Positions 20,783 through 63,030 of a stretch of 64,000 nt of DNA are shown here, piece by piece. The first letter of the stretch is position 1. Each line of letters starts with the position of its first letter. Source of the stretch: Spartobacteria bacterium (GTDB lineage Bacteria; Verrucomicrobiota; Verrucomicrobiia; Chthoniobacterales; UBA6821); NCBI GenBank assembly GCA_947482345.1, contig CANKJN010000003.1, positions 1,922 to 65,921 of the forward strand, in the 5' to 3' direction. The position numbers and the translations under genes were made by a program. A model generated the notes under the pieces. The model ran no database searches, was not told the origin of the DNA, and saw only the letters and a program-made list of their open reading frames with translations.

Positions 20783-22429
<1,647 letters not shown>

Positions 22430-22466
22430 GTCCGACTCCCACGCTTCTCTAAGAAGTTACAGCAGC

Positions 22467-22500
22467 AGCCGGGTCAGAAATGACCCGGCTGTTTCTGTTT
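22467..22500 (+). terminator. Rho-independent terminator of groESL
   Basis: Stem AGCCGGGTCA, loop GAAA, stem TGACCCGGCT, followed by GTTTCTGTTT. Confidence 0.75.
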
Positions 22501-22618: not shown

Positions 22619-23155
22619 ATGCAGCCCCTCAAAAAGCTGGCAATGACCTTGGATTCCCTTGCCAGCAGGGAGCACTCACTCTTTGCCTCTTCAGATCTGA
22701 GGGCGGCATTCGAGAAGTATGATCAACTGCCAGTCCTGCTCTCCCGTGCAGTCAAGGCTGGTCTCCTCAAGAGGATCTGTCGTGGCATTTACCTCTATCC
22801 TAAGGGGGGGTATCCCATGGGGGACCTTCTCTTCCATACGGCGGCCCGCTTACGGGCCGATGAGTTCAACTATATCAGTCTGGAGACGGCATTAAGTGAT
22901 GCCGGACTGATATCCCAGATCCCGATGAATTGGATTACCATCATGTCCTCGGGCAGAAGCCATACCATTGATTGCGGCGAGTTTGGGCACATCGAGTTCA
23001 TCCATACGGAGCAACGTCCCGAGGAGATCTGCGGGGAACTCGCCTACGATCCCGCGCGCCATCTCTGGAGGGCTTCGGAGAAGCAGGCCCTGCGTGACAT
23101 GAAAATGACCCGGCGAAGCATGGACCTGGTCAGTATGAGGAAGGAGACTGCATGA
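22619..23155 (+). CDS. AbiEi-family type IV toxin-antitoxin antitoxin / transcriptional regulator
   Basis: 178 aa with a winged-helix-like N-terminus (AVKAGLLKRICRGIYLYP). 4-nt ATGA overlap with the downstream AbiEii-like gene. Confidence 0.7.
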   Translation: MQPLKKLAMTLDSLASREHSLFASSDLRAAFEKYDQLPVLLSRAVKAGLLKRICRGIYLYPKGGYPMGDLLFHTAARLRADEFNYISLETALSDAGLISQIPMNWITIMSSGRSHTIDCGEFGHIEFIHTEQRPEEICGELAYDPARHLWRASEKQALRDMKMTRRSMDLVSMRKETA

Positions 23156-24024
23156 GTTCGGCGACACTCTTCAATTCCCTCGTTGACGAGGCACTCAAGT
23201 CGCGTCCCGAGTTAGCACTCCTGCGTCCCGTCGTGGAGAAGGAGTTGCTCCATCACGACATTCTTAGGGAGATGAGTCAGGAAGGACTGCTCTCCAGCCT
23301 CACCTTCATCGGCGGCACTTGTCTGAGAGCCTGCTATGGCTCTACGCGTCTCAGCGAGGATCTCGATTTTACCGGAGGGAACGATTTCAAGCGCTCCGAT
23401 CTCATGGAACTGGGGATGGTGCTCAGCGAAACTATCGGCACCCGCTACGGACTGAAAGTCAGCGTGAGCGATCCCGTCAGGACGGAAGGGAAGGTCAGCA
23501 CCTGGAAGATGAGTGTAGAGACCTGTCCTGGTCGCAAGGATCTTCCTGCACAGCGCATCCATCTCGATATCTGCGCCATCCCCAGTCACGACCCCCGCCC
23601 CATGATGTTGCGTACCCTCTATGGCGTCGATATGGGGACCTCCGGTCTCATCCTTCAAGCCCAGAGTAGGGAGGAGATCCTTGCAGACAAGGTGATAGCC
23701 TTGGCATTCCGCGAGGGGCGAATCAAGAACCGTGACCTCTGGGACATCGTCTGGCTCCAACAGCAGGGAGTGGAACTCCCCGTTCAACTGATCCCGCTCA
23801 AGATCCACGACCACCGCCGCTCCAAGGACGAGTTTCGATCACTCCTGCTGGAGAGGGTGGGGGAGTTGAGAAAGAGCGAGGCGCTTAGGAAAGACTTCAT
23901 CAAGGAGATGAGACGATTCCTTCCCGTGGCCACGGCGGCCCAGACCGTGGAACAGGAACCTTACTGGCGGTATTTGACTCAAGTTATTGGGGAGGAAGCG
24001 GAGAAGGCGCTGGCTATTCTCTAA
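23152..24024 (+). CDS. AbiEii/AbiGii-family nucleotidyltransferase toxin (DUF1814)
   Basis: 290 aa with the pol-beta NTase motif [22 protein letters not shown]. Confidence 0.8.
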
Positions 24025-24046
24025 GGAACCGCGGTTCCCTAACCCA

Positions 24047-24202
24047 ACCAAGGTCACCCGCAGCGCCCTGCAGAACGCCGCTTCCATCAGCGGACTCCTG
24101 CTCACCACCGAGGTCACCATCGCGGACGCTCCTGAGAAGGAGAAGGCCCCTGCGATGCCACCAGGTGGCGGAATGGGTGGAATGGGCGGAATGGACTACT
24201 AA
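24047..24202 (+). pseudogene. Duplicated groEL 3'-end fragment
   Basis: Encodes [51 protein letters not shown], nearly identical to the groEL C-terminus. The copy continues through a second terminator. Confidence 0.85.
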
Positions 24203-24233
24203 GTCCAAGCCTAGCCTAAAAAGCTCAACAGAG

Positions 24234-24267
24234 AGCCGGGTCAGCAATGACCCGGCTCTTTCTGTTT
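24234..24267 (+). terminator. Second copy of the groEL terminator
   Basis: Stem AGCCGGGTCA, loop GCAA, stem TGACCCGGCT, then CTTTCTGTTT. Confidence 0.7.
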
Positions 24268-24445
24268 CTAGGCTTGGAGGCTTGGGATTTTGGCGCAGGG
24301 CGTTGTTGCTGCTCGGTCAGCGTAGGTTCACTACGCTTTCCCTCGCGACGCCTAGCCCTGCATCCAAACTTCCAAGCCTCGACTGCAGTGGGGAAGGTCA
24401 GCAGTCTTTGGTGGCTTCGAGTTCGGTTAAAATCACGAAATCTTA

Positions 24446-24784
24446 TTAAACCCCTTGTTGTTTAAGGTTCCAATCAGTGAATCCAGAGATAACAGTCATA
24501 TCCTCAAAAAACTGATTTTCTGTGATTCCATCCAAAATTATCATTCTTCTTAATTCATGGAAAATTTTGTGGAATCTTGTGCTTTCATTAAGGCTGTTCC
24601 ATCCAGGAATATTTACACCATATTTATTTAAATAACCTTTGGATAGTTTAGGTATGTCGTTGATGAAATTCTCACATGCGAATATCTGAATAATTCCTCC
24701 ACCTTTCATTCCGCAAGAGTTTATGTGAGTTGCTTCAGACCAGCAAATCAGCGCAATTTTAGAATCAATAGAGTTTTTTAGCAT
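24446..24784 (-). CDS. Small hypothetical protein (112 aa) in the most AT-rich DNA of the window
   Basis: The ORF lies 76 bp downstream of the helicase gene and is co-directional with it. I recognise no motif. The coding call rests on length, context and shared atypical composition. Confidence 0.5.
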   Translation of the reverse strand: MLKNSIDSKIALICWSEATHINSCGMKGGGIIQIFACENFINDIPKLSKGYLNKYGVNIPGWNSLNESTRFHKIFHELRRMIILDGITENQFFEDMTVISGFTDWNLKQQGV

Positions 24785-24860
24785 TAAATCCGGAGTTTTA
24801 TTTCAATTGCGTTAGGTTTTGATATTTAAGTAAGGCCTAACTTATATTCGCGCAACGTTT

Positions 24861-27800
24861 TTATTTATCCCAAACGAATCCAATTTCAGTAAGGCGAGCC
24901 ACTTTATCAGCATCAAGAATTCCTTTGCGCTTTTTCTGACGCTGTTTCGTAGCCCAGTTTGCCAGGCCAATATTAGCCTTAAAGTGCCTTGGGACATTGC
25001 AATGTCCATATTCTGCTCTGAAATCAAGTATATCCCTGAATCGATCTTCCCAAGTATTTTGCGTCCCTTCTTTGCCCCAAGATACACCAAGAAAGGTCAG
25101 TTTTTCCTCATGAATCAGGGAAAGAGTCCCCTTGCGTTTTTTACTTCTTTGATCAGTAAGCCATGCACCAAGTGACGGGTTGTCCTTGAATCGAGCCGGA
25201 ACATCACAATGCCTGTGAAGTTTTTTAAAATCTCGAAGTTCTTCAAAACGCTTATTCCAGATTTCATTGCCGATTTCTGAATCTATTCGAGGAGAAACCC
25301 ATTCAAAGCAGATATCCGAAAGAAGCCTTTCGTAGTCTTGGTTGAGTAATCCTCTTGATTTCTTTGATCGTTGCGTTCCAACCCACCGTGCAAGAATAGG
25401 ATTTTCTGGATACTGGCTCGGCACATTGCAATGACCATAGAGCTTTTTAAAATCCAAGAGTTCCTGATAGCGATCCCACCATCGCTTATCGTGAGCGTCC
25501 CAAACGAATCCCGCGTCATTGAGCTTACTAACTTTTTCAGGATCTAAAGTGCCTTCTTTGAAGGATTTTCTTTGGTACATTATCCATATACCAAGTGATT
25601 GATTCTCAGGGTCTGTAGGAGAAGCATTTGTGTGCCCGGTTTTCTCTTTGAATCTCAAAAGTTCAAGGTATCGCTCTTCCCATCTGCACTGCTGCTCGCT
25701 CCAACGGAATCCTGCGTGATCGAGTAGGTTTTGTCTCTCAGCGTAAAGAAGCCCTCTTGTTTTTGCGCTCCTTTGGTTTTCAACCCATGAGCCAAGCATT
25801 GGGTATTCCGCACAGCCTTTTGGAACGTTCGTGTGACCATACTTAGCTTTGAATTGGAGGAGTTCTGCATAGTGCGTCTCCCACTTGGAGACTAAACCAT
25901 CTATGCACTGAGCCGCTACGGCTGACTCAATGTCATTTAGGTGTACATGAGGGCCTATAACCTCAACCAATTCGCCGAAGGGTCGATCAACAACTCCTTC
26001 CTCAAGAACAGAGTTAATCGCTGAGAGCCTGATGGTATCTGCCAGCACTTCATCCTGCTCCTGCATTGTTTGTAGAACATCCCAGATTTCATCGAAGTCC
26101 GCTCGGGCTACCGCCTCATCTAGGCTTTCGCCTGACTCAACCTCGACATAGAGAGGAACGAGAACATACCCGAGTTTCTTGCCGGGTGATTTTCGCATTG
26201 CTCGGCCTGTAGCCTGAACGATGTCTACCAGACTGCGTCTCGGTGAAAGAAACGCCACCATGTCGACCGCTGGGACATCGACTCCCTCGGTGAGGCATCG
26301 GGCATTGGACATTATACCACTGTCTGAGGCCCTGAAATCGCGCATGATCCGTTCTCGATGGGCGGTCGGCATCGCTCCGCTGACATGGAAAGTGCAAAAT
26401 TCTGGAAGATGAGTTCTCACTCCCTCGCTGGTATCCGCAACGAAGGAAGAGGCGGATGCCACCGTATTGTGAAAGGTAAAGATGCGGCGGACACCGTATT
26501 TATAAGCGGCATCACGGAGTGCAATCTGGTTAGCCACCTGCCTAGCCTGAATAGCATCGCCATCGATCAGAACCTGCCCTCTGCTGATCAGTTCATTTGT
26601 CACCATTTCGGAGGTGATGACCGAGATGACAACTTTGTAGCCGCAGATGATTTCGCGTTTGGCTGCTTGGCTGAAACTCAGTGTGTAGCAGCGCGTTCCG
26701 AATACCTCGGGGTTATCCATCGAATAGACCAGTTCCGCGTCACCTGATCTGTCCTTCTTTCTTGGATTGTGGTGCCGTGGAGTGGCCGTGACGAAGAGTC
26801 GCTTGGCGATGAGGATATTTGCGTCCTTCAGGGCGTAGGAGAGTTTGGATCCATCGCGGCCTGCGGTCTTGTGAGCCTCGTCGAAGATGCCGAGATCGAA
26901 GGATTCGTCCGGATGCATGGCCGCACCAACCACTGTTGCGGATTGGTAGGTACTGAAGACGATCTTGGTTCCCTTGAACGGGGCATCAAGGAAGCTGCGG
27001 ACGGTTTCGGGATTCGTGGAAACCTCGAAATCGAGGTCCGACTGGGCCGTGCTGATCGCATCGGCATCTCCTTTGACGGTGGGATCGGAGCAAACGCAGA
27101 GGTAGGCGAGTGATTTGAGACTCGTTTCCTTTAGCCACTCGTGGAGCGTCTGCCGAAGCAGGGCGAGCGAGGGAAGCAGGACGAGGATCTTTTGTGCGCC
27201 AAGCTGTTCCGCTGTCCAGAGGGTGACGAGGGTCTTACCCGTGCCACAGGCCATGATAGCGGTTGCACGACTTTCCTTTTGGAGTGTCGGAACGATGGCG
27301 GCCAGTGCCTCCTCCTGATGGGGAAGGGGAGTTTTCCTCGGGGTGCGGACTGTGGCCTCGGCAAGCCATGCCTCAATCGCAGCGAAGTCCGATGCCCCCA
27401 TCCGGTCTAGATCCGATCCCCTAATGCAGAAAAAGCCCTGTCGGTCGTTGATGACGGAGGGAAGTTCGTCGCAGTTGGTGATCAGGATGCGGCTTCGGAT
27501 GTGGGGGCTGTCGGCCAATCCCATGAAGGTCGATAGCTCACGCCAGGTCATCGGGTCCCGGCCCGTTCGGAATTTTACCTGATAAGCGCTCAGATCCCCA
27601 AGGAGCGTTTGAAGGACTCCATCGATGCCGTAATCCATCCCACCCAGCCCCAGCTTGCTCAGGATATCAAGCGGGGTGGCGTTCAGCGGCCAGACTTCTT
27701 TGGCATCATGCTTCCGCTGGGTGGCGAGATACGCCTCGGCAAAAACCTCGAAGGCATCGCCCTTTCCCTTGTTCTCCGGAATCGCCGTGATCCGTTTCTC

Positions 27801-27875
27801 CAGATCCGCAAACGACTTCACCCCGGCAAACAGCCCGGACTTGGCAATCTCTCGTGATTTCGTGTGCAGTGGCAT
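24861..27875 (-). CDS. Mrr-like PD-(D/E)xK nuclease domain + SF2 (DEAH) helicase + five C-terminal helicase-associated (HA) repeats
   Basis: The N-terminus has GDAFE...DYGIDGV...YQVKF. Helicase motifs are ACGTGKT (I), FDEAHKTAG (II), TATP (III), LTEGVDVP (V) and QATGRAMR (VI). Five ~65-aa repeats follow, of the form W..(R/H)(Y/F).EL..FK...GH.NVP......LG.W...QR. The ATG at 27875 is preferred over the TTG at 27902. Confidence 0.85.
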   Translation of the reverse strand: MPLHTKSREIAKSGLFAGVKSFADLEKRITAIPENKGKGDAFEVFAEAYLATQRKHDAKEVWPLNATPLDILSKLGLGGMDYGIDGVLQTLLGDLSAYQVKFRTGRDPMTWRELSTFMGLADSPHIRSRILITNCDELPSVINDRQGFFCIRGSDLDRMGASDFAAIEAWLAEATVRTPRKTPLPHQEEALAAIVPTLQKESRATAIMACGTGKTLVTLWTAEQLGAQKILVLLPSLALLRQTLHEWLKETSLKSLAYLCVCSDPTVKGDADAISTAQSDLDFEVSTNPETVRSFLDAPFKGTKIVFSTYQSATVVGAAMHPDESFDLGIFDEAHKTAGRDGSKLSYALKDANILIAKRLFVTATPRHHNPRKKDRSGDAELVYSMDNPEVFGTRCYTLSFSQAAKREIICGYKVVISVITSEMVTNELISRGQVLIDGDAIQARQVANQIALRDAAYKYGVRRIFTFHNTVASASSFVADTSEGVRTHLPEFCTFHVSGAMPTAHRERIMRDFRASDSGIMSNARCLTEGVDVPAVDMVAFLSPRRSLVDIVQATGRAMRKSPGKKLGYVLVPLYVEVESGESLDEAVARADFDEIWDVLQTMQEQDEVLADTIRLSAINSVLEEGVVDRPFGELVEVIGPHVHLNDIESAVAAQCIDGLVSKWETHYAELLQFKAKYGHTNVPKGCAEYPMLGSWVENQRSAKTRGLLYAERQNLLDHAGFRWSEQQCRWEERYLELLRFKEKTGHTNASPTDPENQSLGIWIMYQRKSFKEGTLDPEKVSKLNDAGFVWDAHDKRWWDRYQELLDFKKLYGHCNVPSQYPENPILARWVGTQRSKKSRGLLNQDYERLLSDICFEWVSPRIDSEIGNEIWNKRFEELRDFKKLHRHCDVPARFKDNPSLGAWLTDQRSKKRKGTLSLIHEEKLTFLGVSWGKEGTQNTWEDRFRDILDFRAEYGHCNVPRHFKANIGLANWATKQRQKKRKGILDADKVARLTEIGFVWDK

Positions 27876-28029
27876 AGGGGATGTCGGAGTGTAGGACAAC
27901 AAGCATCCCCCTCCAAGCCTTCAAAGCTCCTAAAGGGGGATGAGTATCCATGGACTGTAGGGACATTTCACCATTGGCGCTTTTTTTCCGCACAATGAAG
28001 GCTAGATTGATACAAGTCACTACGGAGCC

Positions 28030-29318: not shown

Positions 29319-29506
29319 ATGTGTGCCCGGGAGGCAGGGTTGTAGACCACGCGAAGCGTAGCCTGAAGGGTAACCAAACACCCAGGAGGGTGTGCGGAAG
29401 AGAGCGATGCAATCGCTCCCCGAAGGGTGCCACAGCTCCCCGGAAGGGAAGTGGCATCAAGCGGCATCAGACGGAGTGTGCGACAACAAGCATCCCCTTC
29501 TAAGCT
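29319..29506 (-). repeat. Structured repeat family, copy A (canonical orientation on the minus strand)
   Basis: Aligns as a reverse complement with 62800-63030 and 39441-39530. Contains the hairpin GAGCGAT-GCA-ATCGCTC (29402-29418), a CCC-TTCG-GGG hairpin and others. Confidence 0.75.
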
Positions 29507-33910: not shown

Positions 33911-34235
33911 AATCAGGAAAGGAGAAAGAAATCCCTGAGGGCCGGCTGATTTCTAGCGCAGAAGTAGGGGAAAACTCACAGGGATGAAGGGGATAAAGGG
34001 GATGGGAGAAATCCCCTGTCCCCGATCGTATCCAGCATATTACAGTGACACTGGGGGCACGGATCAGCCCAACTGTTCCAAAATCCTTTTCATCCCCTTC
34101 ATCCCTGTGAAATGTCAGGGATTCTCTGACTCCTTTTTTCCGGATCAAACCTGCAGCGTCGCTGGTACTTGAAGCATCCAAACGGAGGTTTGGCAGGGAA
34201 GTCCTTTCCTAAGCCGATCGCCTTGAACTGTTGCC
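33911..34235. repeat. Direct repeat copy 1 (decayed MidA-like gene 3' end plus its downstream region)
   Basis: Aligns with 35800-36168. The 34150-34235 part is a frameshifted copy of the methyltransferase C-terminus, with a 14-nt deletion. Confidence 0.8.
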
Positions 34236-35799: not shown

Positions 35800-36168
35800 A
35801 ATCAGGAAAGGATAAAAGAACCCCTGAGGGCCGGCTGTTTTCTAACGCAGAAGTAGCGAAAAACTCACAGGGATCCGTAATGGATGCGAAGCAACGGCCG
35901 GGCCAGCCAAGGGGATAAAGGGGATGGGAGAAATCCCCTGTCCCCGATCGTATCCAGCATATTGCAGTGCCACTGGGGGCACGGATCAGCTCAGCTGTTC
36001 CAAAATCCTTTTCATCCCCTTCATCCCTGTGAAATTGCAGGGATTCTCTGACTTCTTTTTCCGAATCAAACCTGCAGCGCCTCGACTCCCGGGCGCTGGT
36101 ACTTGAAGCATCCCAGCGGAGGCTCGGCGGCGAAGTCCTTTCCGAAGGCGATCGCCTTGAACTGTCGC
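35800..36168. repeat. Direct repeat copy 2 (intact MidA-like 3' end plus downstream region)
   Basis: Aligns with 33911-34235. It is continuous with the intact gene at 36066-37253. Confidence 0.8.
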
Positions 36169-46420: not shown

Positions 46421-49290
46421 TGAGCGCGGCTTCGGGACTCAATGATCTTGACGAAGTTTTCCGTATCGGGCGCTTCACACGCCGTCATCTCGGTTCCGAG
46501 AACGAGGGCATCGGAGCGATGCTCTCCACGCTGGGATGCTCCTCACTGGAGGATCTGATCGCAAAGACCGTCCCCCCCGGGATCCGTCTCAAGCGCCCGC
46601 TTGATCTGCCCGCGGCCCTCTCCGAGGAGGAGGCCCTGGCCGAACTTCAGGGGATCGCATCGCAGAACGAGAATCGCCCCACCTACATCGGCATGGGGTA
46701 TCACGGAACGCATCTCCCGGCCGTGATCCGCAGGAACATCCTCGAGAATCCCGGTTGGTACACGGCCTACACCCCCTATCAGGCGGAGATCTCCCAGGGA
46801 CGCATGGAGGCCCTGGTCAATTTCCAGACCATGGTCTGCGACCTGACCGGGATGGCGATCGCGAATGCCTCGATGCTCGACGAGGCCACGGCCGCCGCCG
46901 AGGCGATGGCCATGTGCCACGACCTCAAGGGGCAGGGGGGCGCCTCCCGCTTCTTTGTCTCCGAGGGGTGCCATCCCCAGACCATCTCCCTGCTGCGGAC
47001 CCGCACGGAGCCCATGGACATTGAGCTGATCGTCGGCGGCATCCACGACGTTCCCAATGCCGGCCTCTGCGGCGGCATCGTGCAGTACCCCGCCACGGAC
47101 GGGACGATTTCCGATCCTAAGCCCCTGATCGACGCGATCCATGCCGCGGGCGGTCTTGCCGTGGTCGCAAGCGACCCTCTTGCCCTGGTCCTGCTCAAGG
47201 CCCCCGGAGAGTTCGGTGCCGACATCGTTGTCGGATCGACCCAGCGCTTCGGAGTCCCGATGGGATACGGTGGCCCTCACGCGGCCTACCTCGCCGTGCG
47301 CGACGAGTTCAAGCGCCGCCTGCCCGGACGCCTGGTCGGGATCTCCCGAGACGCCGACGGCAACCCCGCATACCGCCTCACGCTCCAGACCCGGGAGCAG
47401 CACATCCGCCGCGAGAAGGCGACAAGCAACATCTGCACCGCCCAGGTCCTCCTCGCCGTCATCGCCTCGATGTACGCCGTCTATCACGGCCCCAAGGGAC
47501 TGCGCGAGATCGCCGAGAAGGTCCATCTTCAGGCGCTCAAGCTTGCGGCCTCGCTGGCCAAGGCGGGATGGGAGGTTTCCAAGGGCCCATTCTTCGACAC
47601 AGTCCGCGTCACGATGACCCCGGCCGAGTCGGCATCCCTCCGTTCCCGCGCTGAGCATGCCGGCATCAATCTCCGCTACCTCGGCGAGACTGCCGTGACC
47701 GTTTCCCTCGACGAGACCACCGCGTCGGTCGACCACCTTGCCGATCTCTTCGGCACCGGTCCGGGGAATGCCGTCAACGACGCGCTCGCCTGGCAGACGC
47801 CTGATGCCCTGCGCCGCTCCACTCCGATCCTCACCCATCCGGTCTTCAACTCCTACCACACCGAGACCGAAATGCTGCGTTACCTGCGCCGCCTTGAGGC
47901 CAAGGATCTCTCCCTGACCACCTCCATGATCCCGCTCGGATCATGCACGATGAAGCTCAACTCGACCTCCGAGATGCTCCCCGTCACTTGGGAAAAGATC
48001 GGGGGACTTCACCCCTTCGTGCCGGTCTCCCAGGCCAAGGGGTACGCCGTCATGTTCCGCCAGCTTGAGCAGTGGCTCTCGGAGGTAACCGGATTCCATG
48101 CCGTATCCCTCCAGCCCAATGCCGGCTCCCAGGGAGAGTATGCGGGGCTTCTCGTGATCCGCGCCTACCACAGGTCGCGCGGCGACCAGCACAGGAACGT
48201 CTGCCTGATCCCCACCTCCGCCCACGGTACCAATCCCGCGAGCGCCGCGATGGTCGGCATGGAAATCGTCGGTGTCGCCTGCGACAACGAGGGGAACGTC
48301 GATGTCGCGGACCTGAAGGAGAAGATCGCCGCGCACCGCGACCGTCTCGCCGCGCTCATGGTGACCTATCCCTCGACCCACGGCGTCTTCGAGTCACGCA
48401 TCAAGGAGATCTGCGCGATGATCCACGAGGCCGGAGGACAGGTCTACATGGACGGGGCCAACATGAATGCCCAGGTGGGTCTTTGCAGTCCCGGCGACAT
48501 CGGGGCCGATGTCTGCCACCTCAATCTTCACAAGACTTTCTGCATCCCTCACGGCGGCGGTGGTCCCGGCGTGGGCCCGATCGGTGTCGCCGGGCATCTC
48601 GCCCCTTTCCTTCCCGGACACTCCGTCATCCCGACCGGCGGATCGCAAGCCGTGACCGAGGTGAGCGCCGCCCCCTGGGGAAGCGCCAGCATCCTGGTCA
48701 TCAGCTGGATGTATCTGCGCATGATGGGGCCGGATGGTCTCGCCATGGCCAGTGCCCTTTCGATCCTCAACGGCAACTACATCGCCAAGCGTCTCGAACC
48801 CTTCTTCCCCGTCCTCTACAAGGGTGAGAACGGCACCGTCGCCCACGAGTGCATCCTCGATTTCCGCGAGTGGAAGGCCCGCGCCGGAGTCGAGGTCGAG
48901 GACATCGCCAAGCGCCTCATGGATTTCGGCTTCCATGCCCCCACCATGAGTTGGCCCGTCCCCGGTACCCTCATGGTCGAGCCGACCGAGAGTGAGTCCA
49001 AGGAGGAACTCGACCGCTTCTGCGACGCCATGATCGTGATCCACGGCGAGCTCACCGCCATCGAGAAGGGGGAACTAGACCGCGCCGACAACCCACTCAA
49101 GCGCGCACCCCATACCGCCGCTACCGTCACCTCCGACGAATGGAACAGGCCCTATTCACGCCAGCAGGCCGCCTATCCGGCCCCCTGGCTCAGGAACCAC
49201 AAGTTTTGGCCGAGCGTTTCGCGCGTGGATAATGTCTACGGAGATCGGAATATCTTCTGCTCCTGCCTCCCTGTTCAGGGAGGGGGCTAG
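46420..49290 (+). CDS. gcvP: Glycine dehydrogenase (decarboxylating), single-chain P protein
   Basis: About 956 aa of full-length GcvP similarity, including the PLP site region [18 protein letters not shown]. The start overlaps the gcvH stop (TGATG). Confidence 0.95.
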
Positions 49291-49367
49291 GTCCTTTGAG
49301 TTCTAGCGTCGTTGCCCTGCGCTTGCAGTAGTTCACTACAGCTGCGCTTGGGCGCCTAGCTATCTCC

Positions 49368-49402
49368 TCAAAATACCGTCGCCCCTTCAGCAAAACGACG
49401 GC
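49368..49402 (-). terminator. Possible terminator downstream of the DUF202 gene
   Basis: On the minus strand: CCGTCG, a 14-nt loop, CGACGG, then TATTTTG. Confidence 0.35.
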
Positions 49403-62799: not shown

Positions 62800-63030
62800 G
62801 TTGAACGGCACTTTGCTTTGCCTCAGCATCTCCCGATGCATTGATGCCGCCTCCCTCCCGGGAAGCTGCGGCACCCTTCGGGCAGCGACAGAGTCGCAGT
62901 CTACCGCACACCCTCCCAGGTGTTTGGTTCGTCCCCTTCGGGACTGTCCCTGCAGTAGAGGGAAAGGCTACGCGGTGCCACCAGGCACTCGGCGGTCGCA
63001 ATGCCGTGCCGCCCTCACGTGCTACACCTC
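62800..63030 (+). repeat. Structured repeat family, copy B (longest)
   Basis: Core 62836-62968 aligns with the reverse complement of 29347-29470. Hairpins are GCCGC...GCGGC, CCC-TTCG-GG, GCGAC-AGA-GTCGC (62885-62897) and ACACC...GGTGT. Confidence 0.75.

Follow-up and report, generated by a model that had tools for sequence, protein, structure and literature searches.

The stretch of DNA considered here, 64,000 nucleotides of contig CANKJN010000003.1 from a Spartobacteria bacterium of the Chthoniobacterales (the window), carries a gene for a protein of 1004 amino acids (aa) that combines an N-terminal nuclease domain, a superfamily 2 (SF2) DEAH motor and five helicase-associated (HA) repeats. 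A second open reading frame (ORF) of 112 aa follows after 76 bp; both are encoded on the minus strand, as described in the initial annotation, which took the pair for a candidate defence module. The larger gene, referred to below as the helicase gene, starts at an ATG codon. An upstream TTG would extend the ORF to position 27902 and finds no support among the homologues, many of which are full-length; the closest of them, P0001, is 92% identical. The coordinates of all features are collected in Table 1, where L numbers denote loci of relatives.

A Type ISP nuclease and motor joined to HA repeats

What kind of enzyme does the helicase gene encode? By sequence and by predicted fold, residues 21-611 show clear homology with LlaBIII and LlaGI, two restriction enzymes of Type ISP. 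A phmmer search matched LlaBIII (4xqk) with an E value of 4.6e-55 and LlaGI (5ffj) with 3.9e-47. Pfam places Mrr_cat_2 at residues 56-139 (E 1e-5), ResIII/DEAD at 182-370 and Helicase_C at 463-562, and the nuclease motifs can be paired with those of LlaBIII: GDAFE with GTLFE, GIDG with GVDL, and YQVKF with IQAKF. Across 68 homologues E43 (GDAFE), D85 (GIDG) and Q99 and K101 (YQVKF) are invariant. The same is true of C210, G213, K214 and T215 in the Walker A motif, of the DEAH box at 332-335 and of most of motif VI, and the remaining Walker A residues are at least 90% conserved.

An AlphaFold2 (AF2) model of the protein, made with the 68 homologues as input, reached a mean predicted local distance difference test (pLDDT) score of 83.7, with values of about 90 in the nuclease domain. 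The core of this domain is modelled as alpha-beta-beta-beta-alpha-beta. When the model was compared with the PDB by Foldseek, the top match was LlaBIII 4xqk (E 1.2e-37), followed by LlaGI 5ffj and then by RadD, XPB and SauUSI. The initial annotation had read a PD-(D/E)xK/Mrr-like nuclease from short motifs and had named structure prediction as the check on this call; the motif alignment, the invariant residues and the model together settle the N-terminal domain as a predicted Mrr-type PD-(D/E)xK nuclease. The SF2 DEAH core and the five HA repeats were likewise recovered by Pfam.

The homology with LlaBIII ends at about residue 648 of that enzyme, which corresponds to residue 611 here, and residues 612-660 are helical in the AF2 model. 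The best PADLOC match, to the Type IIG/ISP model REase_MTase_IIG (E 7e-89), is confined to positions 15-661 of 1646, that is, to the nuclease and motor half of the model; no named system matches the protein, and the initial annotation had likewise not recognised the domain combination with this partner as one. Type ISP enzymes are described as consisting of an Mrr nuclease, an SF2 ATPase, a coupler, a methylase and a target-recognition domain (TRD) (PMC4666363, PMC7049714). Pfam and NCBIfam find no methyltransferase domain in the 1004-aa protein, there is no TRD since the C terminus is made up of the five HA repeats, and Pfam detected no modified-base reader (SRA, EVE, DUF3427 and similar). 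The protein shares with LlaGI and LlaBIII a single chain in which an N-terminal Mrr nuclease (E / D / QxK) precedes an SF2 translocase of double-stranded DNA, whereas their coupler-methyltransferase-TRD half is replaced here by the HA repeats. Methylase and TRD are two defining features of Type ISP, and the protein is therefore not a member of that type; lacking this half, it has neither host-DNA modification nor target recognition in the Type ISP manner. It is most likely that the nuclease-motor chassis of Type ISP was kept, that methyltransferase and TRD were lost or never present, and that the HA array stands in their place.

The five stretches assigned to HA by Pfam (E 5e-86; 283 bits against a cut-off of 28.4) start at residues 665, 732, 799, 873 and 942. 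Pairwise identity among them is only 34-48%, which indicates an old array without recent tandem duplication. The array has an isoelectric point of 9.05, compared with 5.6 for the other parts of the protein, and its match to the solved HA domain 2kta is weak. HA domains have been reported to bind DNA and to serve as alternative C-terminal modules on phospholipase D (PLD) nucleases (PMC12191111); telomeric Tn7-like transposons encode TniQ proteins with tandem HA domains, which TtrA has as well (bioRxiv 10.1101/2024.11.13.623437). The array evolves faster than the chassis that carries it: relative to the 92% homologue, the ratio of non-synonymous to synonymous change (omega) is 0.45 in the HA part and 0.09 in the first 640 codons. 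The density of variable sites, too, is about twofold higher in the array. Between the window and the related locus L093, groEL is 92% identical at the DNA level and the nuclease and motor part 71%, whereas the HA part cannot be aligned.

Base composition is divided in a similar way. Both genes had been described as AT-rich and foreign in composition; this holds for the small ORF, with a GC content of 0.34, and for the HA-coding third of the helicase gene (GC 0.44, GC at third codon positions (GC3) 0.40), to which the AT-richness is limited. It does not hold for the nuclease and motor part (codons 1-640; GC 0.56, GC3 0.63), which is near the window mean of 0.59. Along the helicase gene as a whole GC3 slides steadily from about 0.7 to about 0.35. 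An N- to C-terminal fall of GC3 is also seen in many homologues, though not in every one, and these come from several unrelated phyla; those listed are L001, L009-L011, L023, L024, L032, L035, L036, L039, L040 and L045.

Several other systems resemble the protein in part. The ATP-dependent Type IV enzyme SauUSI (PDB 7clg) likewise unites nuclease, SF2 motor and a DNA-reading module at the C terminus in one chain without a cognate methylase; SauUSI uses a PLD nuclease and an SRA-like reader, whereas the nuclease here is of the Mrr type and the C-terminal module consists of HA repeats. Sequence and fold matches to SauUSI in the motor are weak. Of the features that define ATP-dependent Type IV systems, a nuclease and an NTPase without a cognate methyltransferase are present in the 1004-aa protein, but a modified-base reader domain is not. 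In the fusions of PLD nucleases with HA, described in a study of END nucleases together with other modular nuclease-sensor enzymes, the HA domain is again an interchangeable C-terminal DNA-sensing module on a defence-type nuclease, although these proteins, which are also known from prediction only, use another nuclease superfamily and have no translocase motor (PMC12191111). The TniQ proteins with HA arrays share the tandem repeats, proposed there to select DNA targets, but the repeats are fused to a transposition targeting protein and not to a nuclease-motor.

How widespread is this architecture? All of the best 120 protein clusters carry ResIII, Helicase_C and HA, alignments span 93% or more of the query in nearly all of them, and the proteins are 923 to 1639 aa long. 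In a survey of one genome per species, relatives with 30-66% identity were found in Verrucomicrobiota, Planctomycetota, Beta- and Gammaproteobacteria, Actinomycetota, Chlamydiota, Prochlorococcus, SAR11, SAR86 and SAR116, a patchy cross-phylum spread that suggests horizontal transfer. The number of HA copies varies from 1 to 13 across the family. Sister forms include proteins of about 1600 aa on the same chassis, which have the length of Type ISP enzymes, proteins of about 1000 aa whose C-terminal region is uncharacterised, and the TtrA-like Streptomyces protein of L072, which has no nuclease. Only three phage records match, two of them from Listeria phages and aligned over the nuclease-motor region only, and a phage origin of the gene was rejected. 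As far as the searched literature shows, the family is large, annotated and uncharacterised, and pairs a nuclease-motor of the Type ISP kind with an HA array and no methylase.

A hypervariable site downstream of groEL

Close relatives have in common the series RrnaAD/NUDIX - DnaK - GroES - GroEL, while the genes 3' of groEL differ among them (Table 1). The site in these Chthoniobacterales is a hypervariable defence hotspot. It holds the helicase gene in the window and in L094; in three relatives with an identical GroEL protein the helicase gene is absent, and in others it gives way to different genes, among them defence-type genes.

The segment missing from those three relatives has its junction in a GGGATG / GGGGGATG microhomology, which lies within the GGM-repeat tail of a duplicated groEL 3' end. 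This points to a deletion and not to an empty insertion site. The duplication itself comprises the last 165 nt of groEL together with its terminator; the two copies are 1773 bp apart, about 94% identical, and flank the AbiE cassette. Relatives with AbiE have two groEL 3'-end copies and those without it have one, from which it follows that AbiE came with the second copy; the copy in L093 is 93% like the one at 24042-24267. The AbiE genes, which overlap by 4 bp, do adjoin the helicase locus as first described, at a distance of about 420 bp and in convergent orientation, and are a separate system.

In the comparison of the window with L001, the two loci with the most similar helicases (92%), the groEL side is in common and the helicase 5' side is wholly different, with DUF3422-Fur-Suf in the window (27935 onward) and nucleotidyltransferase-PRTase-RuvA-LpxK in L001 (1-9900). 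The helicase gene thus lies at a synteny breakpoint.

The 44-bp element directly upstream of the helicase gene was not flagged by a consensus promoter scan, which found no minus-strand promoter 5' of the gene. Part of this element is a local repeat (27885-27918) with a second copy at 29472-29505. The initial annotation had the gene start overlap this repeat. With the ATG start the repeat ends 10 bp upstream of the coding sequence, and an overlap arises only with the unsupported TTG; in related genomes, however, the copies extend into the helicase coding sequence and cover its first 3-116 bp. The window and four relatives also contain truncated 'ghost' copies of the 5' end of the helicase gene, which without exception begin 44 bp upstream of the ATG and end 34-162 bp later. 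They often stand in pairs on either side of one gene: in the window this is DUF3422, in L095 Nramp and in L001 a DUF6036-like nucleotidyltransferase. Repeated gain and loss may have left these copies behind as scars, or they may mark a site of recombination.

A structured hairpin repeat of 108 nt lies 3' of the small ORF. It folds with a z-score of -5.1 and shows compensatory changes in 7 of 21 pairs across four sequences. A covariance model finds it again at 49280-49386 in the window, L091 11708-11814, L005 1845-2034 and L009 13407-13512; the repeat is dispersed and intergenic, at gene 3' ends, and has no Rfam match. A specific association with the helicase was rejected, given the copy at 49280-49386 and another beside the Mokosh-like gene of L091. 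Short inverted repeats lie at both edges of the region (24265-24280 and 27910-27925), yet a transposon-like module was rejected: the left arm is part of the dispersed hairpin, there is no transposase or integrase, and the strain indel ends elsewhere. Other dispersed intergenic repeats (GGGATAAAGGGGATGGG...) lie at 33951-34028, 35840-35950, 29372-29460 and 62841-62929 of the window, and the stretch at 35866-35929 is 92% identical to one just 5' of the L009 helicase gene. Rfam and tRNA scans gave no matches.

Table 1. Features of the helicase locus and of the site 3' of groEL. Positions are those of the window unless an L number is given.
Feature	Position	Strand	Basis and remarks
Mrr nuclease / SF2 motor / 5xHA gene, 1004 aa	24861-27875	minus	ORF list and translation, Pfam, homologues; stop codon 24861-24863
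Mrr-type PD-(D/E)xK nuclease (predicted), aa ~35-140	27456-27773	minus	Pfam Mrr_cat_2, LlaBIII alignment, AF2 model; E43, D85, Q99, K101
SF2 DEAH translocase core, aa ~182-611	26043-27332	minus	Pfam, phmmer, Foldseek, PADLOC; Walker A 209-215, DEAH 332-335, motif VI 554-561
Five HA (PF03457) repeats, aa 665-1004	24864-25883	minus	Pfam; basic, AT-rich, fast-evolving
112-aa orphan gene	24446-24784	minus	Co-directional, 76 bp 3' of helicase stop
Conserved 44-bp upstream element (GGCTTGGAGGGGGATGCTTGTTGTCCTACACTCCG...)	27876-27919	minus	Repeat D8 and pattern search; promoter-like by eye
'Ghost' copies of helicase 5' end	window 29472-29505; L001 8728-8884; L090 19272-19429; L095 12857-12904, 14497-14594; L097 9013-9046, 11261-11352		
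Hairpin repeat, 108 nt	24274-24381	minus	Between small ORF and duplicated groEL terminator
AbiEi/AbiEii cassette	22619-24024	plus	Pfam AbiEi_4 and AbiEii; PADLOC AbiEi E 4e-60, AbiEii E 1e-103
Duplicate of groEL 3' end and terminator	24042-24267	plus	Copy of 22269-22500; repeats D1 and D7, spacing 1773; terminator scan
Segment absent from L096, L097, L099	24182-27934		blastn breakpoints; holds hairpin repeat, small ORF, helicase gene, upstream element
AbiE, helicase and DUF3422 after groEL	window and L094		
AbiE and DUF3422, helicase absent	L096, L097, L099		GroEL protein identical
AbiE absent, helicase absent	L095, L098		
AbiE, PIN, TPR, MazG-like and Schlafen-type helicase	L090		Schlafen-type helicase matches PDC-S41, AbiO, Nhi
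SF1 helicase with DUF559	L091		Matches MkoC, MkoA, Hhe, PDC-S37
Other HA helicase, 1171 aa	L093		Same place and orientation
umuDC directly after groEL	L092		

Restriction-like defence or genome maintenance

Presence and absence among strains, the genes that fill the hotspot, the divergence of the HA part in L093, the omega contrast and the density of variable sites are features expected of an accessory gene that sits in a defence hotspot and carries a rapidly changing specificity module. The reading favoured here is that the gene encodes a stand-alone, ATP-driven, restriction-like DNA endonuclease-translocase without a methylase, and that it may act as a single-gene defence system; this proposal, made by analogy with Type ISP, stands at about even chances. 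Type ISP enzymes recognise a target and are then driven downstream by ATP, and cleavage follows when two enzymes converge (PMC4666363, PMC7049714). In the same manner, the basic HA array would select and hold a DNA target. Target holding would load the motor, with ATP hydrolysis and movement along duplex DNA as the result, and the N-terminal nuclease would cut at a stall or collision, as in LlaGI and LlaBIII.

Is the enzyme assisted by other proteins? All ORFs within 6 kb were clustered in 37 diverse HA-helicase loci. No cluster occurred in more than three loci and none at a fixed position, and among 97 immediate neighbours scanned with Pfam and PADLOC each listed family appeared once only; a conserved partner gene was therefore rejected. 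No conserved neighbouring methylase was found in the 37 loci either. With no methylase in the protein or conserved nearby, self-sparing must lie in recognition by the HA array or in regulation. The array could, for example, recognise a sequence, a modification or a structure that is absent from host DNA.

Several points weigh against this reading. How a nuclease-translocase without a modification partner would spare host DNA is the main gap in the model, and no experimental test of the Mrr-SF2-HA architecture was found in the literature searched. The association with defence genes was examined by comparing PADLOC matches (E <= 1e-10; protein counts are estimates) near to and far from the helicase. 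The 21 model hits near it correspond to about 10 proteins of 97 and include AbiH, MkoA/MkoC, Dsr1 and several PDC candidates; at distances above 6 kb in these loci there are six model hits, or about 5 proteins of 97. The difference in rate, roughly twofold, is not significant, and several of the matched models are generic. All four of the more distant homologues examined (53-55% identity, on long contigs) stand singly amid housekeeping genes. The family-wide link to defence genes is thus weak and not significant, and the defence context proposed at the outset finds support at the hotspot in sister genomes and no significant support in the family at large. A defence role for the helicase is plausible, with support that is local and not family-wide. 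Finally, the strong purifying selection on motor and nuclease (omega 0.09) would suit a maintenance enzyme equally well.

Could the protein instead be a genome-maintenance helicase-nuclease, acting on damaged DNA, stalled forks or DNA ends, with an HA array that reads DNA structure? The housekeeping surroundings of the distant homologues, the lack of a significant difference between near and far PADLOC rates, and an omega of 0.08-0.09 in the motor and nuclease part are all consistent with such a role. Repair genes are neighbours in some loci (umuDC in the same hotspot, a UvrA-like gene in L009 and RecD2 in L101), and the next structural neighbours after Type ISP are the repair helicases RadD, XPB and UvrB. 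However, a maintenance function fits poorly with a gene that is present or absent among strains of identical GroEL, that is replaced at the same site in sister genomes by bona fide defence-type genes, and that has a patchy cross-phylum spread suggestive of horizontal transfer. Restriction enzymes are by far its closest homologues, and no obvious LexA-type palindrome is seen upstream when the sequence is read by eye. On balance, maintenance is an unlikely explanation. SOS regulation was rejected, as no operator common to the upstream regions of umuD and the helicase gene was seen by eye (no formal motif search was made).

The small downstream gene and the wider family

The 112-aa ORF has no match in Pfam, PADLOC, NCBIfam or PHROGs, in agreement with its first description as an ORF without recognisable motif, and with a pLDDT of 55 its AF2 model cannot be used. 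The ORF is probably a genuine gene. Homologues with 85% identity (L005-L008) and with 49% identity and exactly the same length (P0160, L104/L105) are known, and its omega, calculated from 36 substitutions, is 0.41. The suggestion that the small ORF is a degenerate HA repeat was rejected, since an HA profile run against all six frames of 24270-24900 detected nothing beyond the helicase's own end. In the contigs with the 85% homologue an extra ORF of 162 aa (L005 1294-1782) comes after the small ORF with overlapping stop and start codons; it matches no family, and the window lacks it.

Is the small gene an obligate partner, so that the helicase and the 112-aa protein form a two-gene defence system in which the latter is a regulator, inhibitor or sensor? 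The linkage is consistent where it exists. In each of the five loci read, the small ORF lies 40-81 bp 3' of an HA-array gene, and this is true of three sequence-distinct versions (window, L005-L008 and L104/L105). No terminator was detected by a terminator scan of the 76-bp gap, and the omega value and the conserved length also count in favour of such a system. Against this, the small ORF is absent from the closest helicase homologues: the 92% homologue has in the same slot an unrelated 79-aa ORF, itself without any homologues, and the 81% homologue has yet another sequence, unrelated or uncalled ORFs thus taking its place. In all three cases the slot is AT-rich (GC 0.35-0.38). An exhaustive profile search through 1.84 billion representatives recovered three true relatives, which make up the whole family; its only new matches were P0160 and a repeat protein judged spurious. 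Moreover, relative to L005 the synonymous divergence (dS) is 0.22 in the small ORF and 0.82 in the adjacent HA region, which suggests that the small ORF has moved independently. An obligate pair is therefore improbable. The idea of helicase and small ORF as a general two-gene module fails with the 37 loci, in which no partner is conserved, and the expected co-occurrence with HA helicases is seen in the five loci read but not in the closest homologues or the 37 diverse loci. The small ORF is conserved in so far as it has a homologue of the same length and a low omega, although its relatives are very few. It is best described as a clade-restricted accessory, a rare local add-on that the helicase family does not require and no general partner.

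Even less probable is a role like that of TtrA, the sub-telomeric 'terminal transfer' helicase of Streptomyces linear replicons, whereby helicase and HA repeats would recognise replicon ends or transfer intermediates in DNA transfer or mobile-element maintenance: TtrA also pairs an SF2 helicase with tandem HA domains (identity of about 28-33% across these two regions) and has been implicated in the cell-to-cell transfer of telomeric ends (bioRxiv 10.1101/2024.11.13.623437), but TtrA-like proteins have no Mrr nuclease and are found near linear-replicon ends or on plasmids, whereas the protein in the window has an intact nuclease, invariant across the family, and is encoded in a chromosomal hotspot. 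Homologues do occur in 629 plasmid records, mainly Streptomyces linear plasmids and Pseudomonas megaplasmids. The best-ranked plasmid copies, one Rhodococcus copy excepted, align only from about residue 180, as does L072, so the Mrr nuclease is absent from them; the Rhodococcus copy does bear the nuclease and is placed on a linear plasmid, 12-16 kb from one end. In the window the flanks are chromosomal (dnaK-groESL on one side and fur-suf on the other), and the called-gene tables of the region (L094) list no conjugation, replication or integrase genes.

If the restriction-like reading of the single large gene is extended to the family, Mrr-SF2-HA(n) proteins would form a widespread and unrecognised class of single-gene, methylase-independent restriction enzymes. 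In such a class the 1-13 HA repeats would set the target, arrays would be swapped or diversified as AT-rich cassettes, and clade-specific small downstream genes would modulate the enzyme. The swapping of AT-rich cassettes would explain the recurrent fall of GC3 within the gene. This extension is tentative, and on present evidence rather doubtful.

What would follow if the restriction-like reading is true? At least hundreds of genes annotated as 'DEAD/DEAH box helicase' or 'helicase associated domain protein', in Verrucomicrobiota, Planctomycetota, Proteobacteria, Actinomycetota, marine picocyanobacteria and SAR11/SAR86, would encode methylase-free enzymes of the restriction type, raising the question of how such an enzyme spares the DNA of its host. 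DNA recognition by a repeat array, placed on a well-understood motor-nuclease chassis, would offer a tractable model for modular target recognition. The hotspot downstream of groEL is clear and well sampled, and genes gained, lost or replaced there can be followed at base-pair resolution.

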